Source: a virus. Taken from it: DNA of 64,000 nt. The translations under genes and the position numbers were made by a program. The stretch lies in IMG/VR virus record IMGVR_UViG_3300025834_000005; one strand, given 5' to 3'. Shown here one piece after another: positions 7,679 through 40,745 of this stretch. The first letter of the stretch is position 1, and each line of letters begins with the position of its first letter. Under the pieces are notes generated by a model. The model was not told the origin of the DNA, did not search any database, and was given only the letters and a program-made list of their open reading frames with translations.

Positions 7679-10297
7679 ATGGCTATTGAATTAAATGATA
7701 ATATTAAAATATTAGCACCTAAACCCGATAGTTCACGATATTGGAATCTTGCCAACACGCCATATACTGATACGGTACAAGTATTGTCAGAAATACCTAT
7801 AGGATTACGATTTATCGGAATGCTTGTGAATGTTAATGGTACTGAATACTGGTTTAGAGACGGTATTAATCTCGAATTATATAATAAACCTTTAACTGGT
7901 CTGGATATGGTAGCGGCACTTCAAGCACTGCCATTAGCCGATAAATTAACAGCAAATGATATAACATATAATGCTGTATTATTGAAGACATTTCTGGATA
8001 ATTTAACAGGATCTAATCTTGGTGTACTTGAGATAGAAACGACGTATAATGGTAATTTTTTTAATGGAATGCGTGTAGCATTTTATGATAATACTGATAC
8101 GTTGATAAAAATTGTCGAAACTTTAACAGGATCTACACTGACGACGCTTCCCATTGGCGTTTACACTGCTGTATTACTGCCTCCTACAGGATATATTACA
8201 GATATGGTTACGATCACTGATGCTAATAATTCTGACAACGCTTCCACCGTAACAACAATTAGCGGAATAACTATTAATAGTAGCATTAAATGCACTATTA
8301 ATATTGTATTAGTTCCCGAAGCAATCCCTGTGCTCAATTATATGTTAATTAATAATGGCGATTTATTTTCATCAATTTCATTATTATCAATAACACCAAA
8401 TTCAGTTGGTGTTATTGATCAGTATATGCTTTCAGAGAGTTCAACATTTGCTGGCGCATTGTGGATTAACTATACAGGGGTTATAAATTATAATAAGGAC
8501 TATATTTCAGATATAACAGTAGTCCTTTATTTGAAATTAAGGAATTCTAAGGGCGTTAGTAATAGTGCAAGTGATAGTATAACCATGACAAATGGCTTCC
8601 ATCGTAGCGACGTGAGTGATACGTATAACTTATTAGGTGACGCTATTAACGCTGTTATTGCCGATTATAATGGTAATTTAACTCAAGATGTGATGATTAC
8701 TTGCGTTGGTATGACTATAAATACCAGAAATACTGGATCATATTTAATAGACGTAAATGCTCTAAATAAAAATTCAGATTATGTATTGATTATTGACGGG
8801 ACAAATAGACTAACACTGGACTGCGCAAGTCTTGGGGGAATACGAATAAAAGATAGTAAAAATATTCTAATTAATGATATAAATTTTATTAATGTGGGTT
8901 CGCAATTAACTGAAGCAGCACCTGAAGAACTTGCAGCTGTTTTTTCACAAGGAACTCCATTGAAACCCTGCAATAATATTGTTATAAAATCTTGCCATGT
9001 TGATTGTAGAGAGACTTACAACGGAATTACAAAGGACGGCAGTTATGGTTTTATCGCTAAAAATACTACGAATTTTAGCACTTTTGAAAATAATATCATA
9101 AATGCGGCTGCTGTGTTGATAAAATGTTCATTTGTTAATAATCTCAATGTCATAAAAAATATTTTTAGAGGTACACAAGTTATCGGTATTGTTAGCCAGC
9201 CTACATTAGTATTAAATACTAACGGTAAACGTGTATATATTTCTGATAATGACTTCAATGGCGATACATTTGACACTGGACTCATTATTGATGCCAGATA
9301 TGTGACAATAATTAGAAATAAATTCCACAGCCTCAATGGTGAATCAATTAGAATGATCAACACAACAAGAGGCGTTAGTCTTGATATAAGCTCCAATTCA
9401 TTTTATAACAACTTGTTAGTAGCTCCATATCCTTGGGTAAAATATACTATAATCCTTAATAATTATTTTGAAACAGTGAGATTTGTATCAAACACTTGTG
9501 AAATGAGAGGTGTAAATTATAGTGGAACTGGTGAATCTTTGATTAGAGGATATAATTGTACGATTAATAAATTAATATTTTCAAACAACATTATTTATAT
9601 TAATTGTCCAGATCCACGATACGCTAATAATACAAGCGGTGGTAATATATTGAATTTTAGTGATATTGTTACATTGGAGTCAAATAATAATATCTATTTA
9701 GACATATCTGCTGACAACAACACTTTAAATACGCCCATTATAACAACAGACACAACATCGACAACAGTGTTGAGATTCATGAACAAGATAAGTGATCTTA
9801 ATGCATTAGGCTATGAAATAGATTCAAGGGTTATACCAATTAATTCCGATTTATTTGTGAGTAAATTGGGTTATGATTACAAGCTAACAATCAATGGAAG
9901 CGTACTTGCCGTAAAATTGTCAGGCGATGTTAATGTTATTGATAATAATTATAAATTAACTGGCTCAACTGTTAATTCTGGCGCATTTGGTTATAATTAT
10001 AACGCTATTTCTGAGACGGATTTATCGACGGATTATATTGCCACTGATCTTGATACCGATACTGTTTATACGATAAATGACGTTATAAACGTATTGTCAA
10101 CACAAGAGCTTTTGTTTGAAACACTTAACAAGAATAGAACCGCTGTGCTTTCATGGAAAATAATAGATAGTTCTAATCAGCATATTGTAAATTCGTTATT
10201 AGGATTATCTGGGTTTGTATCTGTATTTTCAAATTTAAACCCTGATGGCACTTATTTATCAGATGCTTCATATAATATTGAAATAAATTTAATTTAA
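7679..10297 (+). CDS. Tail fibre or tailspike with predicted right-handed beta-helix domain (candidate depolymerase)
   Basis: 872 aa with the shared N-terminal anchor. Turns such as NILINDINFINVG, IVIKSCHVDC and VIKNIFRGTQV resemble parallel beta-helix repeats. Confidence 0.55.
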   Translation: MAIELNDNIKILAPKPDSSRYWNLANTPYTDTVQVLSEIPIGLRFIGMLVNVNGTEYWFRDGINLELYNKPLTGLDMVAALQALPLADKLTANDITYNAVLLKTFLDNLTGSNLGVLEIETTYNGNFFNGMRVAFYDNTDTLIKIVETLTGSTLTTLPIGVYTAVLLPPTGYITDMVTITDANNSDNASTVTTISGITINSSIKCTINIVLVPEAIPVLNYMLINNGDLFSSISLLSITPNSVGVIDQYMLSESSTFAGALWINYTGVINYNKDYISDITVVLYLKLRNSKGVSNSASDSITMTNGFHRSDVSDTYNLLGDAINAVIADYNGNLTQDVMITCVGMTINTRNTGSYLIDVNALNKNSDYVLIIDGTNRLTLDCASLGGIRIKDSKNILINDINFINVGSQLTEAAPEELAAVFSQGTPLKPCNNIVIKSCHVDCRETYNGITKDGSYGFIAKNTTNFSTFENNIINAAAVLIKCSFVNNLNVIKNIFRGTQVIGIVSQPTLVLNTNGKRVYISDNDFNGDTFDTGLIIDARYVTIIRNKFHSLNGESIRMINTTRGVSLDISSNSFYNNLLVAPYPWVKYTIILNNYFETVRFVSNTCEMRGVNYSGTGESLIRGYNCTINKLIFSNNIIYINCPDPRYANNTSGGNILNFSDIVTLESNNNIYLDISADNNTLNTPIITTDTTSTTVLRFMNKISDLNALGYEIDSRVIPINSDLFVSKLGYDYKLTINGSVLAVKLSGDVNVIDNNYKLTGSTVNSGAFGYNYNAISETDLSTDYIATDLDTDTVYTINDVINVLSTQELLFETLNKNRTAVLSWKIIDSSNQHIVNSLLGLSGFVSVFSNLNPDGTYLSDASYNIEINLI

Positions 10298-14849: not shown

Positions 14850-14879
14850 TTGCAGGTTACAAAATAATGATTACTTTTG
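14850..14879 (+). promoter_or_regulatory. Strong Bacteroidota-type promoter of cassette A (TTGCAG-N19-TACTTTTG)
   Basis: tagTTGCAGgttacaaaataatgatTACTTTTGtaccg. The same architecture occurs at cassettes B, C and D. Confidence 0.55.
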
Positions 14880-14907
14880 TACCGAAATAAAAAAATAATT
14901 AGAAACA

Positions 14908-14979
14908 ATGAGAACAATTTTTAACATAGTACCGCAACATCAACCACAACAATTGAAATCTTTTCAATCGAATGGCTGA
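14908..14979 (+). CDS. Leader mini-ORF A (23 aa, MRTIFNIVPQHQPQQLKSFQSNG)
   Basis: The run CCG CAA CAT CAA CCA CAA CAA (PQHQPQQ) uses only Pro/His/Gln, which are exactly the tRNA identities encoded downstream. A terminator follows. Confidence 0.5.
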   Translation: MRTIFNIVPQHQPQQLKSFQSNG

Positions 14980-15007
14980 ACTATGTAAAAAATAAGCATA
15001 CATAATG

Positions 15008-15042
15008 ATCCCCTTTAATTGAAAGATTAAAGGGGATTTTTT
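15008..15042 (+). terminator. Intrinsic terminator of cassette A
   Basis: cccctttaat-tgaaag-attaaagggg (10 bp stem) followed by a T-run. It ends 3 nt before the first tRNA-like gene. Confidence 0.7.
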
Positions 15043-15044
15043 AT

Positions 15045-15131
15045 ATAGGCGTAGACCTGTAGTTGGTAGCAGTCCTGATTTGGGATCAGGCGTAGTAAAA
15101 TACCTCGTGAGTTCGAGCCTCACCGCTTATA
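15045..15131 (+). tRNA. Atypical tRNA(UGG), 87 nt with 16-nt variable region
   Basis: Acceptor ATAGGCG/CGCTTAT. Anticodon arm CCTGA-TTTGGGA-TCAGG. T arm GTGAG-TTCGAGC-CTCAC. The D arm is irregular. Confidence 0.5.
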
Positions 15132-15142
15132 CAAATTTTTAA

Positions 15143-18587: not shown

Positions 18588-18626
18588 AAATATTTTAAAC
18601 TTTTTTGAATTATTTACTATTTATAT

Positions 18627-18656
18627 TTGCAGGTAATAAAAAAAGCATTACCTTTG
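18627..18656 (+). promoter_or_regulatory. Promoter of cassette B (TTGCAG-N-TACCTTTG)
   Basis: tatatTTGCAGgtaataaaaaaagcatTACCTTTGtaccg. Confidence 0.5.
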
Positions 18657-18709
18657 TACCGAAATTAATATTTACTTCCTTTAGGGAATCAAAAAAAAGA
18701 ATAGAAACG

Positions 18710-18844
18710 ATGAGAAATTTACTTAACATGGCACATTACATAGTCAATTCTAATGGGAATCAAAAGAACATGGAATTATTGGCAGTGGAACAGGTCAACC
18801 TCCTATTATGGGCGGATGAGGATACATTGTGCAATGCTGGTTAA
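18710..18844 (+). CDS. Leader mini-ORF B (44 aa)
   Basis: MRNLLNMAHYIVNSNGNQKNMELLAVEQVNLLLWADEDTLCNAG. The block ELLAVEQVNLLLWADED uses the Glu/Leu/Ala/Val/Trp/Asp codons served by the array that follows. Confidence 0.5.
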   Translation: MRNLLNMAHYIVNSNGNQKNMELLAVEQVNLLLWADEDTLCNAG

Positions 18845-18871
18845 GTAGAGTTTAATAATAATATTAAATAA

Positions 18872-18902
18872 AACCTCCAGCATACGTGTTGGAGGTTTTT
18901 TG
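18872..18902 (+). terminator. Intrinsic terminator of cassette B
   Basis: aacctcca-gcatacgtgt-tggaggtt followed by TTTT. Confidence 0.7.
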
Positions 18903-18915
18903 TTTATATGCGTTT

Positions 18916-18932
18916 TTTGACATGTTGGAATT
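18916..18932 (+). promoter_or_regulatory. Conserved 17-nt motif TTTGACATGTTGGAATT before the first tRNA of array B
   Basis: The identical 17-mer recurs at 35854..35870 before array D. It contains TTGACA. Confidence 0.4.
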
Positions 18933-32531: not shown

Positions 32532-35399
32532 ATGATAAATGGGATAAAAGAAAGCTTTGAGTACCAAAATCTTAGCACATCAGCAAAACAAGACGTATTC
32601 AATGTTTTCAAAGCAGCTTATGAAAAGGCAACAGGCTCGGCGTGGGACTTTAACAAATTCAATAGCAGAGCATATGGGTGGCAATTTTTTGGTGAAGAAG
32701 ATGGCTATGTTACATTAAGACCACAAAATAGCGGTTACTATAAATTAACAGGTGTTGCAGGCAATCCAAGATCAATTCTACGTGGACTTGGCGAAATAAT
32801 GGGTAAAAATATTCCTGTTTGGGGTATGGTTAGTCAAGATATCTCAAATATTTTAACAAGAAAATTTGAGTTTAGAAAGCCTAATAAAATTGAAACGATT
32901 GCGATTTTTAAAATGATATCATCAAATGTATTTGGTGACGTAAAATATACGGTAAATAAGGATGGTGGCGTAACATTTGATTACGCAGACGTTGGCTCAA
33001 CAACAAAATACTTTGTAGGCAATAAGCCATATTTCTCAAAGGTTCGACAGGAATTATTCAAGACTGTTAAGAATAAACTCGGTTTATCTAAATATCTAAA
33101 TGAGGGTGAGGAATTGGATGAAAAAAGAGCTGTTGACGATTATACTGTGAACTCGTATGACGAGATAATGAAAGTTATTAATACGATTGGTTATAAGAAG
33201 CTGTACATCTCTTTTAGAGAAACCGTTAACGTATCAACAATCAATACTAATAATAAGTACAATACTCCAACAGGCTTATATTGTTATCCTCTAATATCAT
33301 ATAAGTCAAAAATAGAAAATGCTGATAATATTAAGGATTTTACAAATTGTTTTCCTTATATGAGTAGCTCAAAATATATTCACATGTTCTCGTTGGAGAG
33401 TGATGAGAATGTATTATTTTCATCAGCATTTAGTAAGAGTCAGATCAATGGCTATGTTGAAAAAATTAGAGATTATTATCCCACAAATGATAATATTCAG
33501 GAATATTGTCTACAATGGTTTAACGGAACATTTAAGGGATATGGTTCATACACAGCTGTTCAGGGCAATTTGGTAAGCGGAATCTGGTTATTTTTATATG
33601 CTATTGCAGATCAAATAAAAAGAGGTAGTGTGGCTCATTCTGTTACAATTCTCGCAGCATGGCTTGGGATAGACGGATTTGTTGACGATGGTTGCCTTGG
33701 GTATATTCACGAAGCCGAAAAATGTCAGGCTGTATTCTTTAATAATAATTTCAGAAAGATCATAGGTAATTATCAGATATTGTCTGCTCATGATGATAGA
33801 GGTGACGTTCCATTAAAATTTGATGCCCCAAAGGATGTTCAGAATGGCGATGGTAGCGAACAATTTGATGCCTATAGGAAGCAAATTGAGAAAAAATTTA
33901 ATACCATAGACATTAGTTTCGAAGACTCATATAAAAAAATCAAATCAAATATAAAAGCCGAAATACCTAATGTTATAAGTGTTAATGGTATATGGAATTA
34001 TTATGATAGGATGTGTAAAAAATCCTTAAAAAATATAAATTATAGTGAAATATATGATAACGATGATAAAGCAAAAGCATATTATAATACACTGATTAAT
34101 AATAAATTTAATATTATATACATCGTTCATAACAGCTCAACATTTGCTATAGCCAGAAGTGATGCTGGTGACTTATTTGCGGCATCATCAAATATGGTAG
34201 AGCCTTTAGCTGCTTATAAATTAGACAAATCAAGACTTCAAGACTATTCGTCAACATTTTTAGATTATTATATCAATGCTGTTCATAAACATGCATACAG
34301 TTTAGATAGCGTTGAACGATTTGATAATAATGGACAAGCTTTTGCTACGAATTTTAATGGCGACTTACTTACGTTTGATGCTAATGGTAATGAGATACCA
34401 AAAGAAAATGTTATTATCAATTTCGATAATAATATAAATTTGGCAAAGAAGATGAACTACCTTTTAGGCGAACACAGATTTGCTCGTATCGATGGATTCA
34501 ACATTGCTAATAATACATTAGCTGTAGCGTATTCAGCAAATTCAAGTGATAAGTATTTTATAAACAAAAAGGGCGAAAAAGACCTTGTTATTTTGTCACG
34601 ATATGATTTAAATATGATGAGCGTAGATGTACGTGCCATATATATCAATCAGCTGATAGATGAGAATAAGTATTATGAGGTAAATTCATTCGATGAGGGA
34701 AATGAACATTTAGCAAGAGCGACAACATTCGACGGCGATACAAATTTTATCAATATGGATGGACACCCAAGCGTGTCTGGATTATCTGAGGATGATGTTA
34801 ATGGCTTTAGTGCTCGTACATTAGCAGCTTATATGAATACAATTATTGGTAAGTCATTATACAAATATGCTCGAAAAGTTAATTCATATCTTGATTTTAA
34901 TGCCGATGCGTTATTTGGTGACGCTGAGGTTTATAAGTGCGAAATAGAAAATGATGTTGCGATATACTCTACTCTTAGTGGTGGTATTCCTGATATTGAT
35001 CTTACTAAAGCAACTAATTGGAATAGTACGGACGAAAATGCCATCATGTTGAATACTAAATTTAAATCATTAAGATTTAATTACGCTTATAAGTATGCCG
35101 ATGACGTATATCAGGCAAAAATGCCCGATAAAGGATATGTATTTTATAATGGAGAAGGTAAGCCAACTTTGGAAGGAATCGATATAAACAGTTACGATCT
35201 TGGTAATGGAGAGAGAGCAGCATATTTTAACACCAAATTGAATACAGATGTATTTCATTCTGTCTATGGATTTAATGTCAACGATATGGCTGAATTTAGT
35301 TCTTTAAATAAATATGGATACATTAATAAGAACGGCGAGACATTCGATGATGAGAAGGGTAACTTTAAAATAACAATAGCTGACATCGAAAACGCATAA
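32532..35399 (+). CDS. Large hypothetical protein (955 aa)
   Basis: Uninterrupted ORF with the motif aagtatttattaaaaaa upstream. No family recognised. Confidence 0.65.
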   Translation: MINGIKESFEYQNLSTSAKQDVFNVFKAAYEKATGSAWDFNKFNSRAYGWQFFGEEDGYVTLRPQNSGYYKLTGVAGNPRSILRGLGEIMGKNIPVWGMVSQDISNILTRKFEFRKPNKIETIAIFKMISSNVFGDVKYTVNKDGGVTFDYADVGSTTKYFVGNKPYFSKVRQELFKTVKNKLGLSKYLNEGEELDEKRAVDDYTVNSYDEIMKVINTIGYKKLYISFRETVNVSTINTNNKYNTPTGLYCYPLISYKSKIENADNIKDFTNCFPYMSSSKYIHMFSLESDENVLFSSAFSKSQINGYVEKIRDYYPTNDNIQEYCLQWFNGTFKGYGSYTAVQGNLVSGIWLFLYAIADQIKRGSVAHSVTILAAWLGIDGFVDDGCLGYIHEAEKCQAVFFNNNFRKIIGNYQILSAHDDRGDVPLKFDAPKDVQNGDGSEQFDAYRKQIEKKFNTIDISFEDSYKKIKSNIKAEIPNVISVNGIWNYYDRMCKKSLKNINYSEIYDNDDKAKAYYNTLINNKFNIIYIVHNSSTFAIARSDAGDLFAASSNMVEPLAAYKLDKSRLQDYSSTFLDYYINAVHKHAYSLDSVERFDNNGQAFATNFNGDLLTFDANGNEIPKENVIINFDNNINLAKKMNYLLGEHRFARIDGFNIANNTLAVAYSANSSDKYFINKKGEKDLVILSRYDLNMMSVDVRAIYINQLIDENKYYEVNSFDEGNEHLARATTFDGDTNFINMDGHPSVSGLSEDDVNGFSARTLAAYMNTIIGKSLYKYARKVNSYLDFNADALFGDAEVYKCEIENDVAIYSTLSGGIPDIDLTKATNWNSTDENAIMLNTKFKSLRFNYAYKYADDVYQAKMPDKGYVFYNGEGKPTLEGIDINSYDLGNGERAAYFNTKLNTDVFHSVYGFNVNDMAEFSSLNKYGYINKNGETFDDEKGNFKITIADIENA

Positions 35400-35487
35400 T
35401 ATGAGAAATTAATTCCCTATAATAAACATTGATAATCAATTACTTAAAATTATTATCAATATTTTTTGTATTTTTTATAGAAAAATG

Positions 35488-35518
35488 TTTGGCGGTTGAG
35501 AAAATTGTATTACTTTTG
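35488..35518 (+). promoter_or_regulatory. Promoter of cassette D (TTTG-N19-TACTTTTG)
   Basis: atgTTTGgcggttgagaaaattgtatTACTTTTGtgccg. Confidence 0.5.
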
Positions 35519-35622
35519 TGCCGTGATCAACAAATGAAGCGACGAGATTTTATTTTAACACTTCTGAAACTTTTATGAAAATCACACTATTTATAAGTCT
35601 AAAAGCATTAATAAAAACGAAA

Positions 35623-35769
35623 ATGAAAAAGAACATATCATCATCAGTAACCATATCGGGAATAACAACGAGATCATCTCGCAGTTGTAATGGTATGTCT
35701 ATGTTCAATAGAATTTTTACAGGCATTAATACAGGCATACAAAAAATAGATTGGGTTCTCTTAATGTGA
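35623..35769 (+). CDS. Leader mini-ORF D (48 aa from ATG 35623; the frame is open from 35575)
   Basis: MKKNISSSVTISGITTRSSRSCNGMSMFNRIFTGINTGIQKIDWVLLM. A 36-codon block uses only N,I,S,T,G,R,C,M,F plus one V, the identities of the tRNAs downstream. A 14-codon uORF at 35534..35578 precedes it. Confidence 0.5.
   Translation: MKKNISSSVTISGITTRSSRSCNGMSMFNRIFTGINTGIQKIDWVLLM
35747..35757 (+). promoter_or_regulatory. Candidate antiterminator segment of cassette D
   Basis: TAGATTGGGTT matches 10 of 11 nt of the terminator 3' arm TAGATCGGGTT. It can pair with the 5' arm AACCCGATCTA and lies 10 nt upstream of the mini-ORF stop. Confidence 0.5.
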
Positions 35770-35792
35770 GAATATAAAACCTTAAAACAGGA

Positions 35793-35828
35793 AACCCGAT
35801 CTACCGCAAATAGATCGGGTTTTTTTGT
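35793..35828 (+). terminator. Intrinsic terminator of cassette D
   Basis: aacccgatcta-ccgcaaa-tagatcgggtt (11 bp stem) followed by T7. Confidence 0.8.
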
Positions 35829-35853
35829 TTGATAGCAGTAAGGCTATCGTTTC

Positions 35854-35870
35854 TTTGACATGTTGGAATT
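35854..35870 (+). promoter_or_regulatory. Conserved 17-nt motif TTTGACATGTTGGAATT before the first tRNA of array D
   Basis: Identical to 18916..18932. Lies 8 nt before the tRNA at 35878. Confidence 0.4.
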
Positions 35871-35877
35871 AAAATAA

Positions 35878-35962
35878 GCAAGGCTGATCGAGTGGTCGAA
35901 GGTAGGTGGCTGCAAACCATCTGGAAGATTTTCCCTCATTGGTTCGAATCCAATGCCTTGCT
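35878..35962 (+). tRNA. tRNA(GCA, Cys anticodon, U73) with class II shape (16-nt variable arm)
   Basis: Acceptor GCAAGGC/GCCTTGC. Ser-like D arm ATCGAGTGGTCGAAGGT. Anticodon arm GGTGG-CTGCAAA-CCATC. Variable arm T-GGAA-GATT-TTCC-CTC. T arm ATTGG-TTCGAAT-CCAAT. Confidence 0.7.
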
Positions 35963-35974
35963 CAAAATTTATAT

Positions 35975-36047
35975 TGGCTCTTAGCTCATTTGGTAGAGTT
36001 CTTCCCTGATACGGAAGCGGTGGTGGGTTCGAATCCCACAGAGCCAA
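35975..36047 (+). tRNA. tRNA-Ile(GAU)
   Basis: Acceptor TGGCTCT/AGAGCCA. Anticodon arm CTTCC-CTGATAC-GGAAG. T arm GTGGG-TTCGAAT-CCCAC. Confidence 0.9.
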
Positions 36048-36115
36048 CAACAAAGAAATAAAAAAAGTTATTTAATTTTGTAACCTTTTAAAAGTTTCTT
36101 CGTATAACTAAAAAT

Positions 36116-36198
36116 GGAAGGAGTCCGAATGGACGAGGACACGGTCTTGAAAACCGCTGGGTGTAAAAGCTTTATGGGTTCGATTCCCTTTTCTTCCG
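36116..36198 (+). tRNA. tRNA-Ser(UGA)
   Basis: Class II. Acceptor GGAAGGA/TTCTTCC. Anticodon loop CTTGAAA. T loop TTCGATT. Confidence 0.8.
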
Positions 36199-36462
36199 CA
36201 TAGCTGTTTGATCGACAGAATCATTCAGTCTGATATTGATAAGTAGTGTTAGTAATTATTCTGTTTATTTGCTAATAATATTTATTAAGTATCGTTTCCG
36301 AATTGCTTAAGATGCTGTCATTAAAATTCTGTTGGGACAATTAGAAAGGATGTATTGAACTACCCGATTATAAAAGGTCTCCTGAGATTTTGTGAATCTT
36401 TGTAATAAGGTTCGTGGTCGTGAGTACGAGGCTCACATCGGAAATAAAATTTTGCTTCAATT
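36199..36462 (+). other. 264-nt non-coding stretch inside the tRNA island (several hairpins; decayed tRNAs or unknown RNA)
   Basis: No credible ORF. Hairpins ctgt-ttgatcg-acag and gtgag-tacgagg-ctcac (T-arm-like but with a degenerate loop). Confidence 0.25.
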
Positions 36463-36536
36463 GGGGAGGTAGCTCAGTGGTAGTTAGCGGTGGAGTGAAG
36501 CCCCACAGGTCGTCGGTTCGATCCCGACTCTCCCCA
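36463..36536 (+). tRNA. tRNA-Phe(GAA)
   Basis: Acceptor GGGGAGG/TCTCCCC. Anticodon loop GTGAAGC. T arm GTCGG-TTCGATC-CCGAC. Confidence 0.8.
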
Positions 36537-36618
36537 CGAAAAACAATGGCGTTTAGTACTGTTACTTCACAGGAAATGAAACAAACACAGTACTTCTATC
36601 TACCTTGTTTTTATTATT

Positions 36619-36692
36619 GCAGGTGACGCATAAGTGGTGGTGCATCAGGTTGCCAATCTGAAATAGAGACGGATCGTTCCCGTTCACCTGCT
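36619..36692 (+). tRNA. tRNA-Gly(GCC)
   Basis: Acceptor GCAGGTG/CACCTGC. Anticodon arm TCAGG-TTGCCAA-TCTGA. T arm GACGG-ATCGTTC-CCGTT. Confidence 0.8.
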
Positions 36693-36706
36693 CCACAAAT
36701 TAAATT

Positions 36707-36792
36707 GCAGTAATCGCATAGTTGGTCGATTGCGCCAGCCTTCCAAGCTGGAAAGAGAAATCACGTCGAGGGTTCGAATCCCTCTTACTGCT
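36707..36792 (+). tRNA. tRNA(UCC, Gly anticodon, U73) with 16-nt variable region
   Basis: Acceptor GCAGTAA/TTACTGC. Anticodon arm CCAGC-CTTCCAA-GCTGG. Variable region AAAGAGAAATCACGTC. T arm GAGGG-TTCGAAT-CCCTC. Confidence 0.7.
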
Positions 36793-36806
36793 CAAAATTA
36801 TTAAAG

Positions 36807-37079
36807 ATGAAACTGAAAAATTTATTGAAAGCTTTGTGGGGTCAGTTACCAGTGCAAAGAGCATTTAGGAATTTCTTTATCACTGGAAATGCTCGTGGCA
36901 TGTTTGACATAAGAAGTCACCAACGAGAAGATGGAAGTCCTAAAGTTATGTATAACACCAAAGCCACTGCACAAAAAGCAGCTGATAGTATGGGTAAAAA
37001 AATGGATAGACATTTCTCGGTTTATAAATGCATCTTTTGTGATGGATACCACTTAGGTAAGAATAGAGATAATAAATAA
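36807..37079 (+). CDS. Hypothetical small protein (C-terminal YKCxFCDGYHLG)
   Basis: 90 aa ORF between tRNA genes. Confidence 0.55.
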   Translation: MKLKNLLKALWGQLPVQRAFRNFFITGNARGMFDIRSHQREDGSPKVMYNTKATAQKAADSMGKKMDRHFSVYKCIFCDGYHLGKNRDNK

Positions 37080-37089
37080 TACGATATAT

Positions 37090-37164
37090 TGCGGAATGGA
37101 CTGGAGGTGGCTTCCAGCATGGTCTCATAAGCCAATCACACAGGTTCGAATCCTGTTTCCGCAT
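37090..37164 (+). tRNA. tRNA(CAU), Met or Ile2 undetermined
   Basis: Acceptor TGCGGAA/TTCCGCA. Anticodon loop CTCATAA. T arm ACAGG-TTCGAAT-CCTGT. 4-nt acceptor-D connector. Confidence 0.65.
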
Positions 37165-37177
37165 CTAAATTAAATAA

Positions 37178-37588
37178 ATGGTTAATAATAAAAATTGTAT
37201 TCACTGTGGAAATAGTTTATCTGGTCAACAGTATAAATTTTGTTCGAGTAAATGTAAAAATTCGACTTATCAAAATAAAAAAAGAAGAGAATTTAAAGAT
37301 ATTACAGGTATTTCATTTCAATCATATAAAGGCATAAAGTTAAAACTATTACTTATTTTGGAATTTGGCGGTGCTTGTATTGGATGTGGATATAAAAAGA
37401 ATCTATCAGCATTAGAATTTCATCATCTTGACCCTAATGAGAAGGAATTTACAATTGATGTGAGAACATTGTCGAATCGCAATATTGATAAGATAAGGAA
37501 TGAGCTAAAAAAATGCATACTTGTTTGCTCTAATTGTCATCAGGAAATACATTATCCGCATTTAGATATTGAAACATTAAATTTATAA
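37178..37588 (+). CDS. HNH endonuclease (homing-endonuclease-like)
   Basis: N-terminal Cys pairs. LEFHHLDPNEK..LVCSNCHQEIH HNH core. Inserted between tRNA(CAU) copies. Confidence 0.75.
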   Translation: MVNNKNCIHCGNSLSGQQYKFCSSKCKNSTYQNKKRREFKDITGISFQSYKGIKLKLLLILEFGGACIGCGYKKNLSALEFHHLDPNEKEFTIDVRTLSNRNIDKIRNELKKCILVCSNCHQEIHYPHLDIETLNL

Positions 37589-37598
37589 TTTATACATA

Positions 37599-37829
37599 AT
37601 GATTGAAAGTAATTATAACTCATACGGAAAATTGAAAACAGATAAAGAAACAAAAATTAAAGCTGGCGATACTGTTGAATACAGCTATGCCGATAACGAC
37701 CCAAATGATAAAAATAAAAAAATAATCATAACATTAAGAGGTATTTGGGATGGTGAAAAGGTCTGCTTTGATGATAAGGAACATACTGTTGTAAGAACAA
37801 CATTTTGGTTAACAAAAATAGAAGAATAA
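37599..37829 (+). CDS. Hypothetical protein
   Basis: 76 aa ORF. Confidence 0.55.
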   Translation: MIESNYNSYGKLKTDKETKIKAGDTVEYSYADNDPNDKNKKIIITLRGIWDGEKVCFDDKEHTVVRTTFWLTKIEE

Positions 37830-37830
37830 C

Positions 37831-37962
37831 ATGGAAAGTAAAGACGAAATAATTGAGGAAAAGACAGAAGACCCTATTAATAACTTTGAGGGCGATGGTA
37901 AATTTCATAAATTAAGACTTAAGAATACACATCTTACGCCAAAGAAGAAAAAACGCAAATAG
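37831..37962 (+). CDS. Small basic-tailed hypothetical protein (43 aa)
   Basis: ATG 2 nt after the upstream stop. Ends in KKKKRK-TAG, touching the next tRNA. Below the track size cutoff. Confidence 0.4.
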   Translation: MESKDEIIEEKTEDPINNFEGDGKFHKLRLKNTHLTPKKKKRK

Positions 37963-38034
37963 CGATATTGGTACTGGTTTCCAGTCACGATCTCATAAGT
38001 CGTTGATATGCAGGTTCGATTCCTGTTATCGCCA
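37961..38034 (+). tRNA. tRNA(CAU) with 1:72 A-C mismatch
   Basis: Acceptor AGCGATA/TATCGCC. Anticodon arm ACGAT-CTCATAA-GTCGT. T arm GCAGG-TTCGATT-CCTGT. Unusual D arm (ACTGG-TTT-CCAGT). Confidence 0.65.
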
Positions 38035-38047
38035 CATTAAAACACAC

Positions 38048-38132
38048 TGCGGAATAGTGTAATTGGTAACACACGAGGCTCATAACCTTGAGACATTAAA
38101 TGCTTGTATTGGTTCGAGTCCAATTTCCGCTT
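38048..38132 (+). tRNA. tRNA(CAU) with 17-nt variable region
   Basis: Acceptor TGCGGAA/TTCCGCT. D arm GTGT-AATTGGTA-ACAC. Anticodon arm CGAGG-CTCATAA-CCTTG. T arm ATTGG-TTCGAGT-CCAAT. Confidence 0.65.
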
Positions 38133-38144
38133 CTATATTTACTT

Positions 38145-38218
38145 GGTCGTGTGGCGCAATTGGTTAGCGCAAGATGCTTATATCATCGAGGTTGTGGGTT
38201 CGAGTCCCACCATGACCA
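38145..38218 (+). tRNA. tRNA-Ile(UAU)
   Basis: Acceptor GGTCGTG/CATGACC. Anticodon loop CTTATAT. T arm GTGGG-TTCGAGT-CCCAC. Confidence 0.8.
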
Positions 38219-38229
38219 CAATAATTAAT

Positions 38230-38302
38230 GCTTCCGTAGCTCAGTTGGTAGAGCAATTGACTGTTAATCAATTGGTCACAGGTTCAAGTCCTGTCGGGAG
38301 CG
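38230..38302 (+). tRNA. tRNA-Asn(GUU)
   Basis: Acceptor GCTTCCG/CGGGAGC. Anticodon arm ATTGA-CTGTTAA-TCAAT. T arm ACAGG-TTCAAGT-CCTGT. Confidence 0.9.
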
Positions 38303-38309
38303 CAAAGAT

Positions 38310-38404
38310 ATCAGTGTACTCAAGTGGCTGACGAGAAGTCGTCGAGAAGACGATTAGGATGGGAAAGACTCCCATCCTCATGGGTTCGAATCCCATCACA
38401 GGTA
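38310..38404 (+). tRNA. Ser-type class II tRNA-like gene, 95 nt, odd anticodon loop (CGAGAAG, anticodon AGA if 7-nt loop)
   Basis: D arm CTC-AAGTGGCTGAC-GAG. Anticodon hairpin GTCGT(C)-GAGAA-(G)ACGAT. 8-bp variable arm GGATGGGA/TCCCATCC. T arm ATGGG-TTCGAAT-CCCAT. Confidence 0.5.
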
Positions 38405-38412
38405 TTTCATAT

Positions 38413-38493
38413 GCTTAGTTAGCCAAGTGGAAAGGCAGCACGCTGTTAACGTGCCGAAGAAATTCATCGTAGGTTCGATCCCTGCACTGAGCG
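38413..38493 (+). tRNA. tRNA(GUU, Asn anticodon, G73) with class II shape (14-nt variable arm)
   Basis: Acceptor GCTTAGT/ACTGAGC. D arm GCC-AAGTGGAAA-GGC. Anticodon arm GCACG-CTGTTAA-CGTGC. Variable arm C-GAA-GAAA-TTC-ATC. T arm GTAGG-TTCGATC-CCTGC. Confidence 0.7.
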
Positions 38494-38510
38494 CAAATAA
38501 ATAATGTATT

Positions 38511-38777
38511 ATGAATGATGACACTGGAAGGTATTATATTACCGATTTCAAAACGAAAAGAACGTTTTGTGTAGAGCCGATTGGCGATGATCGAACGAAT
38601 TGGGGCGATGTAGACCCTGTAACTAAGAAGCTTACAGGTGATTATGGAAAGAAACATCGTGGAAGTATTGACGAAGCTGATTCAATAATCACAAAGGAGA
38701 ATGGGTTCAAGAATATTGTCACATTACCAGCTGGTGAATCACCTCAAAGTTATATCGATAATTTGCTAAAATTATAG
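38511..38777 (+). CDS. Hypothetical protein
   Basis: 88 aa ORF. The antisense ORF over the tRNAs is rejected. Confidence 0.55.
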   Translation: MNDDTGRYYITDFKTKRTFCVEPIGDDRTNWGDVDPVTKKLTGDYGKKHRGSIDEADSIITKENGFKNIVTLPAGESPQSYIDNLLKL

Positions 38778-38808
38778 TTGCATATTTAATATATTATGAC
38801 TAAATTTG
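38778..38808 (+). promoter_or_regulatory. Bacteroidota-type promoter
   Basis: tagTTGCATatttaatatattatgacTAAATTTGcag, closely resembling the 14590-14625 promoter region. Confidence 0.5.
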
Positions 38809-38828
38809 CAGTCTAAAATATATTAGAT

Positions 38829-39053
38829 ATGATAGTAAAATATGAACATCATGGAACATTGGTAAATGTAGACATGGATTTAAAAGGATTGCATCGTGAG
38901 CATTGTTTATGCTTTCAAGGTTGTAATTTCTTCAAGCCCGAAGATCATGCAAATAATTGCGAAATCGCCAACGCTGTTTTCAAAAATTGTGTTGACTTCA
39001 ACATTGTTACTCCTGTTTGGGAATGCCCTAAGTTTGAAAAGGAGACTGTATAA
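38829..39053 (+). CDS. Cys-rich small protein
   Basis: 74 aa with 7 Cys (HCLCFQGC..NNC..NC..WEC). Confidence 0.55.
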   Translation: MIVKYEHHGTLVNVDMDLKGLHREHCLCFQGCNFFKPEDHANNCEIANAVFKNCVDFNIVTPVWECPKFEKETV

Positions 39054-39361
39054 TGGCATTAGAAAAATTAATTTTTGCAGAGGATATATTCGACAACCTC
39101 TTTAAAGGAAAAGTATGTACGATTCGACAGGGTCGTAGAGACGTCGAACTTGGTGATCTTTTATGTGAATCACTTGAAGAACATAGATTGAAAACTGTTA
39201 ATGTTATAATGGTTATTTATTGCAGTCTTCAAGATATTCCAGATGAATTTGTTGAGAATGATGGATATCTTGAGCATTATGATATGTTGGCTAAAATGAG
39301 AAGATTCTATCCAGATATTGAATTAACAACCGAGTGCTCAGTAATTATATTCGAGGTATGA
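39053..39361 (+). CDS. ASCH-like (PUA-fold) domain protein
   Basis: FKGKVCTIRQGRRDVELGDLL and a C-terminal ..VIIFEV fit the ASCH pattern. Start overlaps the upstream stop. Confidence 0.4.
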   Translation: MALEKLIFAEDIFDNLFKGKVCTIRQGRRDVELGDLLCESLEEHRLKTVNVIMVIYCSLQDIPDEFVENDGYLEHYDMLAKMRRFYPDIELTTECSVIIFEV

Positions 39362-39624
39362 AAGAAGTTAATGAGCCAGCAAGTTCCGAATTTATAAATG
39401 AATCTGGACTTGATTTTAAAAACATTAGTTCAGAAAGATATAGACAATATGTTTTTCCTAATGGCGAGAATTTGATCATAAATCAGCCTCTTTATCTAAA
39501 CGTTAGTCCGAGTGGCGGACATAGATTATTTGACAATTTCGGTAACAGCTATTATGTTCAGCCTCAAGAGGGTTGGTATATTAAATGGCAAGCAAAATTT
39601 GGATTACCAAACTTCGTTAAATAG
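39358..39624 (+). CDS. Hypothetical protein
   Basis: ATGA overlap with the upstream stop (ATG 39358 preferred over GTG 39334). Stop TAG, with an in-frame TAA two codons later. Confidence 0.55.
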   Translation: MKEVNEPASSEFINESGLDFKNISSERYRQYVFPNGENLIINQPLYLNVSPSGGHRLFDNFGNSYYVQPQEGWYIKWQAKFGLPNFVK

Positions 39625-39690
39625 AAAGACTAAAATGTTGGAGTAACATAATCCGTGTGCCAACTACCTATAATGGGTTTACGGAAATAC

Positions 39691-39763
39691 GCCAGCGTAA
39701 TTCAGTTGATAGAATAGCGCACTTGTAATGCGAATGTCGTGGGTTTGATCCCCTCCGCTGGCT
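39691..39763 (+). tRNA. tRNA-Thr(UGU)
   Basis: Acceptor GCCAGCG/CGCTGGC. Anticodon loop CTTGTAA. T loop TTTGATC. Confidence 0.85.
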
Positions 39764-39771
39764 CTTAAATT

Positions 39772-39857
39772 GCCTTTTTCGCTTAGTTGGTCGATAGCAC
39801 CTGATTAGTAATCAGGATTTCTCCAGAAACACATTGGTTCGAACCCAATAAAAGGCT
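39772..39857 (+). tRNA. tRNA(AGU, Thr anticodon, A34) with class II shape (16-nt variable arm)
   Basis: Acceptor GCCTTTT/AAAAGGC. Anticodon arm CCTGA-TTAGTAA-TCAGG. Variable arm A-TTTC-TCCA-GAAA-CAC. T arm ATTGG-TTCGAAC-CCAAT. Confidence 0.7.
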
Positions 39858-39879
39858 CAAACATTTAAATTAAAAAGTG

Positions 39880-40272
39880 ATGACAATTCAGGAGCAGATT
39901 AATTCAGACATCCATCAAGCAATGTTGGATAAGAACAAAGATTTATTAACATTTTTAAGGGTGGTTGCCAGCGACTTTTATTTTAAGGGTAAAGTGATCG
40001 AAGATGAGACGGCGAAGAAAGTGTTGCGCACATTAAAAGAAGAAGCAACCTTAATGAATAACCAATACGAAATTGAGGTAATCGCTAAATATCTCCCAGC
40101 TTTATTAAGCGAAGCAGAGATCGAGGCACTCGTTGTAGCTGCTATTAATGACAATGGGTTCAATGGAATGAAAGACATGGGTAAGGTTATGGCTGAGTTG
40201 AAAAAGTCTCCTAATGCCTCTCAAATCGACAACACATATGCAAGCAAATTAGTTAGGGTACTTTTAAAATAA
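39880..40272 (+). CDS. GatB/YqeY domain protein
   Basis: KYLPALLSEAEIEALV..GMKDMGKVMAELKK..ASKLVRVLL is the YqeY-family pattern. Confidence 0.7.
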   Translation: MTIQEQINSDIHQAMLDKNKDLLTFLRVVASDFYFKGKVIEDETAKKVLRTLKEEATLMNNQYEIEVIAKYLPALLSEAEIEALVVAAINDNGFNGMKDMGKVMAELKKSPNASQIDNTYASKLVRVLLK

Positions 40273-40279
40273 TTAATAT

Positions 40280-40353
40280 GCCTCATTAGCTCAGTTGAAT
40301 AGAGCGTGGCACTTCTAATGCTAAGGTCGCTGGTTTGAATCCAGCATGGGGTA
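40280..40353 (+). tRNA. tRNA-Arg(UCU)
   Basis: Anticodon arm TGGCA-CTTCTAA-TGCTA. T arm GCTGG-TTTGAAT-CCAGC. Confidence 0.85.
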
Positions 40354-40374
40354 CAAATTAATATAATTACGATC

Positions 40375-40650
40375 ATGAATATAATAAAAATTGAGAATGT
40401 TAAGGAAGTTGACGTTCGTTCTGACGGAATCACGGCGTTAAATAATTTCAAGATGGATAGTAACAGTAATAAATCCGTTATTATTGTTATGAATGATAAC
40501 GATATAAATAATATTAATACAGCTAATAAGCTCAGAGGATTTTATATTAGCTGTATTGTAATTCCTAAAGGTAAGTATTTATTAGCTGAATTGGAAAATC
40601 AATTACGAAATAATTTCAAAAAAGGTAAAATCGTAATTAGCTATTATTAA
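40375..40650 (+). CDS. Hypothetical protein
   Basis: 91 aa ORF between the two tRNA-Arg genes. Confidence 0.55.
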   Translation: MNIIKIENVKEVDVRSDGITALNNFKMDSNSNKSVIIVMNDNDINNINTANKLRGFYISCIVIPKGKYLLAELENQLRNNFKKGKIVISYY

Positions 40651-40657
40651 AAAATAT

Positions 40658-40731
40658 GGCTCTGTAGCTCAACTGGATAGAGCACTTCGCTACGAACGAA
40701 GAGGTTGGGGGTTCGAATCCCTTCAAGGTCA
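40658..40731 (+). tRNA. tRNA-Arg(ACG)
   Basis: Anticodon arm CTTCG-CTACGAA-CGAAG. T arm GGGGG-TTCGAAT-CCCTT. Confidence 0.85.
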
Positions 40732-40745
40732 CAAAAGTATATAAT

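Follow-up and report, generated by a model that had tools for sequence, protein, structure and literature searches.

The DNA considered here is a stretch of 64,000 nucleotides (nt) from a virus (IMG/VR virus record IMGVR_UViG_3300025834_000005), referred to below as the window. It is AT-rich, phage-like DNA of about 33% G+C that encodes a class I ribonucleotide reductase together with other phage-type genes, and its + strand carries about 38 transfer RNA (tRNA) genes. No close relative was found among GenBank phages. The tRNA genes form four blocks, each of which lies behind the same type of cassette: a Bacteroidota-type promoter, a short open reading frame (ORF), and a strong intrinsic terminator. 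The fourth of these cassettes, cassette D (35488–35828), is the subject of this analysis. An earlier note had read in it two mutually exclusive helices, a terminator and an antiterminator, placed as in classical attenuators. Cassette D and the genes behind it comprise the following features.

35488..35518, + strand: promoter of the Bacteroidota sigma-A type, with TTTG at -33 (35488–91) and the -7 box TACTTTTG (35511–18)
35534..35578, + strand: 14-codon upstream ORF (uORF), MKRRDFILTLLKLL and a stop, overlapping the leader ATG (35575) as ATGA
35575..35769, + strand: leader ORF D, with 64 codons in all and 48 when read from the internal ATG at 35623 (MKKNISSSVTISGITTRSSRSCNGMSMFNRIFTGINTGIQKIDWVLLM and a stop); its TGA stop is at 35767–69
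35632..35739, + strand: putative sensing-codon run, codons 4–39 counted from the ATG at 35623, of which 35 of 36 encode C, I, F, G, M, N, S, T, or R
35747..35762, + strand: upstream antiterminator strand, UAGAUUGGGUU extended by UCUU, within the final codons of the leader
35789..35803, + strand: 5′ arm of the terminator, the shared strand, which pairs with 35747–62 or with 35811–25
35811..35826, + strand: 3′ arm of the terminator and seven-T run; the terminator has a 15-base-pair (bp) stem and a 7-nt loop (-18.4 kcal/mol)
35878..40732, + strand: tRNA cluster D, with genes for Cys, Ile, Phe, Gly(gcc), Gly(tcc), one irregular tRNA, two Met, Ile(tat), Asn, Ser, Asn, two Thr, and two Arg, and small ORFs between them

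The two helices of cassette D compete for a single strand. As the earlier note claimed, the last codons of the leader contain TAGATTGGGTT (35747–35757), which is identical at 10 of 11 positions to TAGATCGGGTT in the 3′ arm of the terminator (35811–35821), and the segment can pair over 11 bp with AACCCGATCTA in the 5′ arm (35793–35803), with one G–U pair (U35752–G35798). ViennaRNA adds four pairs to this alternative helix, joining UCUU at 35759–62 to AGGA at 35789–92. The segment 35747–35757 is separated by 9 nt from the TGA stop at 35767–35769. The alternative hairpin, at -18.1 kcal/mol, is closely balanced with the terminator. Pairing of the leader region with the 5′ arm reaches -16.2 kcal/mol in its best duplex, a value equalled in 3 of 1000 dinucleotide shuffles; with the loop added to the arm the energy is -17.7 kcal/mol, equalled in 6 of 500. 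Five ordinary terminators of the window, which served as a negative control, give 69–483 of 500 in the same test. The complementarity of 35747–35757 to the 5′ arm is unlikely to be due to chance.

Relatives of the cassette were retrieved from IMG/VR and metagenomes by means of an invariant 17-mer that precedes the tRNA genes and is described below. They are uncultured phages on contigs of up to 349–363 kilobases (kb); one, L044, is close to the window (77–90% identity), and the others are distant. All of the retrieved relatives have homologous cassettes, which fall into four leader types (A–D), and all have an intrinsic terminator between the leader ORF and the tRNA genes. No homologous cassettes were found in GenBank phages. 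A search of genome contigs with the motif added only the same 362,763-bp contig, the other 92 matches being chance, and the promoter-region pattern TTACTATTTATANTTGCA used as a query returned unrelated contigs only. The 362,763-bp phage genome that bears these cassettes (L270 / L273, JBAZIW010000001.1) has been deposited as a contig of a ‘Candidatus Paceibacterota’ metagenome-assembled genome, probably as a result of misbinning.

Between the window and L044, identity is 100% in the antiterminator strand plus the ORF tail and 95% in the terminator, compared with 82% in the sensing codons and 66% in the upstream intergenic region. In 15 of 18 unique relative cassettes the 3′ end of the leader ORF holds a significant complement of the 5′ arm, one that is matched in at most 14 of 500 shuffles and in many cases in 0–3 of 500; in those cassettes the energies of antiterminator and terminator are about equal. 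Pairing of the upstream strand with the 5′ arm is kept in each of the following.

L014: upstream strand GATACGGGTTC, 5′ arm GAACCCGTATC
L020: upstream strand GTGTCGGG, 5′ arm CCCGACAC
L011: upstream strand CAGTCGGGT, 5′ arm ACCCGACTG
L025: upstream strand GTAGTCGGGT, 5′ arm ACCCGACTAC
L090: upstream strand TTGGTCGGGT, 5′ arm ACCCGACCAA
L080 (A type): upstream strand GAATGGGG, 5′ arm CCCCATTC
L031 (C type): upstream strand GAATCGGG, 5′ arm CCCGATTC

When native D-type sequences were aligned with MAFFT, the antiterminator strands did not fall in common columns. Because the strand is shifted between lineages, an alignment of 17 cassettes anchored on the C-run and the G-run was used instead; the upstream strand is always the last G-run before the terminator, which leaves little choice in the anchoring. 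In this alignment 83.4% of the cells of the antiterminator helix are paired, and 7 of the 11 pairs show changes on both sides. The covariation score is 0.429, as against 0.158 in shuffles (none of 500 reaches it) and at most 0.139 in slid controls. The terminator helix itself scores 0.350, so the antiterminator is at least as well supported. Conservation and covariation of the two arms in related phages, which the earlier note had proposed as a check, thus come out in its favour. The 5′ arms of L014 and L020 are more fully complementary to the upstream strand than to the terminator's 3′ arm, an argument against the strand being a passive copy of the latter.

The antiterminator strand belongs to a short ORF, complete with start and stop codons, that follows the promoter and precedes the tRNA genes. 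The promoter was identified by the pattern TTTG-N18-22-TAnnTTTG, which matches at 35488..35518. Across the cassettes of the window the boxes are TTTG, 19–21 nt, and TAnnTTTG, in line with the sigma-A consensus of Bacteroides promoters. Identical boxes are found 5′ of 20 of 20 cassettes examined, 28–56 nt upstream of the leader ATG in every one, and no full-consensus match occurs inside cluster D (35.8–40.8 kb). The two possible starts of leader D, 35575 and 35623, lie 56 and 104 nt past the -7 box. The coordinates and sequence given earlier for the uORF and its ATGA overlap onto the long frame check out, and the uORF is kept in L044 with two substitutions. Short uORFs also precede other D-type leaders, namely MKMNL and a stop in L014 (~1231–1248) and MKTNLYF and a stop in L033 (~2241–2264).

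The composition of the leader corresponds to the tRNA genes behind it. Of the 47 residues of leader D, 37 belong to the amino-acid set of cluster D, against a background of 0.51 (P = 8.3e-5). The tail that bears the antiterminator strand (QKIDWVLLM) shows no enrichment in cluster amino acids. The three sister cassettes of the window have the same layout.

14870..15038, + strand: cassette A, with leader MRTIFNIVPQHQPQQLKSFQSNG (14908–14979) and terminator 15007–15038, then three tRNA-Pro, tRNA-His, and two tRNA-Gln genes; antiterminator weak
18626..18901, + strand: cassette B, with leader 18710–18844 (...ELLAVEQVNLLLWADEDTLCNAG) and terminator 18868–18901, then tRNA-Asp, Glu, Leu, Val, Ala, and Gly genes
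23876..24046, + strand: cassette C, with leader MMNATLKYGKTTKSYKKYKMKKDCV (23914–23991) and terminator 24014–24046, then tRNA-Lys and tRNA-Tyr genes; antiterminator marginal

In the window, every leader has an excess of the amino acids that its own block serves (P = 4.8e-5 for A, 0.03 for B, 2.5e-5 for C, and the value given above for D), and the true assignment of leaders to clusters is the best of the 24 permutations. Among the relatives, 12 of 12 cassettes tested are enriched (P from 3.8e-3 to 9.6e-8), and each of their leaders contains every amino acid of its cluster. B leaders include Trp in all cases where tRNA-Trp is part of the block. In 16 of 16 cassettes the amino-acid set of the leader tracks the set of tRNAs downstream, and the families can be described as follows.

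Type A leaders: ..IVPQPQQHPQ.., then Pro, His, and Gln tRNAs
Type B leaders: ..VLLWAAEED.LC.VG, then Asp, Glu, Val, Leu, Ala, and Trp tRNAs
Type C leaders: rich in Lys and Tyr, then Lys and Tyr tRNAs
Type D leaders: rich in Ile, Ser, Thr, Gly, Arg, Cys, Asn, and Phe, then Thr, Cys, Ile, Ser, Phe, Gly, Met, Asn, and Arg tRNAs

The pattern of divergence points to translation of these ORFs. Homologues of leader D occur in L014, L033, L105, and L020, and were counted in five lineages besides L044. The frame of leader D is retained in L044 despite one deletion and one insertion, each of 3 nt, and none of the eight substitutions that separate the two sensing zones introduces an amino acid from outside the D set. 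In the 13-codon block that ends the B-type leaders, there are 5, 7, and 12 variable columns at codon positions 1, 2, and 3. The composition of the leaders, the kept frame, the in-set substitutions, and the codon-position pattern support translation of the leaders and selection on the identity of their codons, not on the peptide sequence. The D-type peptides diverge in sequence and keep their composition. The G+C content of third codon positions gives no consistent signal (0.23–0.44 in the four leaders of the window vs 0.27 in the background); leader C is an exception in codon usage, with AAA and AAG at 4:4 vs 71:29 in the background.

The response of the RNA to a ribosome was modelled with constrained partition functions in which the ribosome is a mask of 30 nt, an assumed footprint. 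In RNA that ends at 35803–35816, where the 5′ arm is out and the 3′ arm is not, the antiterminator forms with P = 0.95–0.96. For RNA cut at 35806, the modelled probability of the antiterminator is 0.96 with the A site at any of codons 1–37, and it falls to 0.00 from codon 40 on and for a ribosome at the stop. The predicted behaviour thus agrees with the earlier proposal that a ribosome stalled early would leave the segment free and, in cassette D itself, with the proposal that a ribosome at the stop would mask it. In cut-RNA folds of D- and B-type relatives, the probability that the 5′ arm is paired upstream is 0.6–1.0.

The observations are best accommodated if cassette D is a ribosome-mediated (leader-peptide) transcription attenuator that stands before a phage tRNA operon and feeds back on tRNA supply, a reading that we regard as likely. 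Host RNA polymerase would start at the promoter (35488–35518) and transcribe the leader ORF, in which almost all of codons 4–39 would be read by the tRNAs encoded downstream. A fast ribosome would be on or beyond 35747–35762 when the 5′ arm emerges; the arm would then pair with 35811–35825, and transcription would stop at the T-run. If matching charged tRNAs were scarce, the ribosome would lag or stall on the sensing codons and leave 35747–35762 free. The free strand, with its near-equal pairing energy, would capture the 5′ arm first; the terminator would come too late, and polymerase would enter the tRNA genes of cluster D (Cys, Ile, Phe, Gly, Met, Asn, Ser, Thr, and Arg). The new tRNAs would accelerate translation of the leader and shut the operon, giving negative feedback on decoding capacity.

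Several findings weigh against this reading. At equilibrium the full-length RNA is about 0.97 in the terminator fold whatever the position of the ribosome. It follows that the switch must be kinetic, with the antiterminator trapped before the 3′ arm is made; a choice of this kind is typical of classical attenuators. A search upstream for an anti-antiterminator, the region 1:2 of classical systems, gave as best partner of the antiterminator strand a pairing of only -7.8 kcal/mol. Since there is no competing upstream partner and the untranslated cut RNA forms the antiterminator, the default state of an untranslated leader would be read-through, unlike that of trp. The earlier reading of the cassette is supported, in that the alternative is real, thermodynamically competent, and placed as described, with the corrections that region 1:2 is lacking and that equilibrium favours the terminator.

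Also unfavourable is the position of the antiterminator strand in L014, L033, L105, and the C-type cassette of L031, where it ends 21–30 nt before the stop and would be uncovered by a ribosome waiting there. Masking by a ribosome at the stop is thus supported in cassette D and not in these relatives, and it is better to say that the helix is blocked by any ribosome that is on the strand or has passed it. In the window itself the antiterminators of cassettes A, B, and C are weak or non-significant (41 of 500, 470 of 1000, and 53 of 500 shuffles, that of B being just a 7-bp candidate, ATGCTGG : CCAGCAT), and upstream pairing in their cut RNAs reaches only 0.31–0.36. The cassettes of relatives that are homologous to A, B, and C have clear antiterminators, unlike the window's own. 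The leaders also hold some residues outside the set of their cluster. Translation of the leaders is argued from their sequence, and leader D is preceded by no Shine–Dalgarno sequence, an absence that is usual in Bacteroidota. Cluster D spans about 5 kb with interspersed ORFs, and its transcription as a single RNA is assumed. Finally, the 17-mer before the first tRNA gene might act as a promoter in its own right and let transcription start past the attenuator.

Some of these findings would be expected if the helix formed by 35747–62 and 35789–803 were real but independent of translation, serving as a constitutive means of tuning the terminator or as a processing or stability stem, with the codon composition caused in some other way. 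Covariation proves pairing and not control by the ribosome; the antiterminator forms by default without a ribosome, and there is no anti-antiterminator to oppose it; and the strand lies far from the stop in some relatives. On the other side, the strand is in every case part of an ORF's 3′ end, each such ORF has a promoter to itself, and the kept frames and the agreement of amino-acid sets with tRNA sets in 16 of 16 cassettes would be needless in an element that works without translation. We consider this explanation unlikely, and the attenuator reading the better account of the ORF.

Cassette D contains further elements whose place in the proposed attenuator is less direct.

35652..35697, + strand: hairpin within the leader coding region (-13.7 kcal/mol), a candidate RNA polymerase pause hairpin
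35831..35848, + strand: second hairpin, weak (-7.8 kcal/mol), followed by a GTTTCTTT tail, between the terminator and the 17-mer; kept in L044
35854..35870, + strand: 17-mer TTTGACATGTTGGAATT (often GTTCTTTGACATGTTGGAATT), 7 nt before tRNA-Cys; a second copy lies at 18916–18932 before tRNA-Asp

The core CGAG/CUCG helix of the hairpin at 35652–35697 is kept in six D-type leaders, with three compensated pairs. It may perhaps serve as a polymerase pause site; it does not sequester the antiterminator strand.

The 17-mer always lies 1–13 nt before the first tRNA-Asp or tRNA-Cys gene, with exactly two copies per genome, and it is identical across lineages whose flanks have diverged (e.g. L014 1603–1619 and L025 2231–2247). 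It could be a promoter for a phage polymerase, an operator, or a processing signal. It was also considered as a sigma-70 or Bacteroidota promoter; the spacing of hexamers and the missing -7 box argue against that assignment. This perfectly conserved element, so close to the first tRNA gene, is the chief attraction of a second alternative, in which the short ORFs are ordinary small-protein genes with terminators of their own, the tRNAs are transcribed separately, for example from the 17-mer, and the copy of the terminator arm arose incidentally through sequence duplication. The strength of the terminators and the hydrophobic, conserved character of the B-type leaders (LLWAAEED) would also fit. 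But A- and C-type cassettes have no 17-mer, and the 17-mer does not conform to the host promoter consensus. In L014, L020, and L033 the 17-mer is separated from the terminator by tRNA-Thr genes, and Thr codons abound in the leaders of L014 and L020. Moreover the upstream strand covaries with the 5′ arm, and outdoes the 3′ arm in the same two lineages, and the D-type peptides keep composition while losing sequence. We judge this alternative decidedly improbable.

A third possibility is a T-box-like riboswitch, in which uncharged tRNA would be bound directly and would stabilise the antiterminator without translation. It has in its favour that the terminator/antiterminator alternative lies upstream of genes of the translation apparatus. 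The region 35400–35900 gives no T-box match even at E ≤ 10, however, and there is none at gathering thresholds in the whole window; the leaders are short (~150–250 nt) and have neither Stem I nor a T-box sequence; the reading frame is conserved; and recognition of as many as nine amino-acid classes would fall to a single element. A T-box-like mechanism is hardly credible here. Other Rfam leader families match cassette D below threshold only (Trp_leader at 16.5 bits with a threshold of 41, Phe_leader at 15.5 with 55, and Thr_leader at 14.8 with 55; E = 1.2–7.4), and the whole window has no match to the Trp, Thr, Phe, His, or Leu leaders at gathering thresholds. The element of cassette D belongs to no Rfam leader family and is not a T-box.

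Among known systems, the trp (Rfam RF00513), his, leu, and pheA attenuators of Proteobacteria share with cassette D a promoter-proximal leader ORF with codons for the commodity under control, an alternative upstream pairing of the 5′ arm, and, in the proposed mechanism, a decision by ribosome position in which the terminator is the more stable fold and the choice is kinetic. Cassette D differs in that the regulated genes would be phage tRNA genes and not genes of amino-acid biosynthesis, in that the ORF's final codons themselves contain the antiterminator strand and no region 1:2 was found, and in that the leader would sense up to nine amino acids and not one; nor is there similarity in sequence to these attenuators. 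By analogy it is most like the multivalent leaders of ilvGMEDA (Ile/Leu/Val) and thr (Thr/Ile; Rfam RF00506), which respond to shortage of any of several amino acids; those leaders sense two or three amino acids that are products of the pathway, whereas here sets of two to nine mirror the anticodons downstream. The pheST attenuator and the T-box likewise use a terminator/antiterminator choice to couple a gene of the translation apparatus to the matching tRNA pool, but they regulate synthetases and not tRNAs, and the T-box binds tRNA directly without a ribosome.

The tRNA arrays of large phages (T4, T5, KVP40, and the Lak phages) resemble those of the window in their clustering on one strand, with small ORFs and HNH genes in between. 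A small ORF between tRNA genes of cluster D (37178–37588) has ~70% DNA identity to HNH endonuclease genes of Lak phages and of Bacteroides phage DAC15, which fits the nesting of mobile endonucleases in a tRNA array. For the 955-residue protein encoded next to cassette D (32532–35399), a search of viral contigs found no relatives.

The four tRNA blocks of the window lie at 15.0–16.9, 18.9–20.1, 24.0–24.6, and 35.9–40.7 kb. The set covers 19 amino acids, tRNA-Trp not being found in the window, and it is partitioned by amino acid, Gly alone occurring in two blocks. The partition partly tracks the first base of the codon: block B holds codons that start with G, plus Leu, and block A holds CCN and CAN. 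Some tRNA-like genes are missed or have irregular anticodon loops (15051–15132, 19082–19154, 24063–24134, 24370–24475, and 37090–37165); they include a third tRNA-Pro(tgg), two with 2-nt ‘anticodons’ according to ARAGORN, an extra Lys-like tRNA, and a Tyr-like tRNA, and may have introns or unusual loops. A tRNA with anticodon CTA (an amber suppressor, ‘Pyl’ according to ARAGORN) stands alone at 25652–25726, outside the four cassettes, and hints at recoding of TAG in part of the genome.

Two further observations concern the relatives. In B-type relatives ATATTACACACTCCTTTCTTA is conserved in the stretch that follows the leader stop and precedes the terminator (L011 1296–1328, L017 3984–4013, L025 2139–2170, and others); it resembles the pyrimidine-rich 3′ end of 16S ribosomal RNA, and cassette B of the window is without it. 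In a more distant lineage, L001 (IMGVR_UViG_3300009169_000335), a cassette at 8795–8946 has a leader, MKRTPIYHSICNPSSVWGRDTFVFLGH, that samples 17 amino acids and contains in its last codons the antiterminator strand TTTGGGGC; the contig ends short of a readable tRNA block. No leader cassette was found before the first tRNA cluster of L001, where there is only the terminator of the preceding gene.

The attenuator logic proposed for cassette D would apply with other codons to cassettes A (Pro/His/Gln), B (Asp/Glu/Val/Leu/Ala/Trp/Gly), and C (Lys/Tyr) of this phage family. Somewhat on balance, we favour the broader view that the family divides an almost complete set of tRNAs among four operons, with a separate multi-amino-acid attenuator gating each and mirroring the anticodons behind it, the whole forming a closed-loop sensor and actuator of decoding. 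The tRNAs of a given class would then be made only when decoding of that class is slow, for example because host tRNAs decay, codon usage is mismatched, or anticodon nucleases attack. With regard to shortages of this kind, the Lys/Tyr cassette is suggestive.

To our knowledge, leader-peptide attenuation has been tied only to amino-acid biosynthesis and to a few synthetase genes. A full-text literature search found no report of leader-peptide attenuators before phage tRNA arrays or before tRNA genes generally. If the four-operon sensor reading is true, this would be the first case of tRNA genes under translational attenuation. Here the same logic appears to regulate the tRNA genes themselves, and the leaders resemble an inventory of the tRNAs that lie behind them. 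If that is so, these phages would gauge decoding speed class by class and replenish tRNA pools on demand, and the grouping of phage tRNA genes would have a functional reason. Co-regulated phage tRNAs could be predicted from sequence, and the leaders could be turned into compact switches for synthetic biology, programmable and responsive to tRNAs or codons. Because such a sensor would report what the phage “expects” to run short of, the long-standing question of why large phages carry tRNAs would become directly testable.

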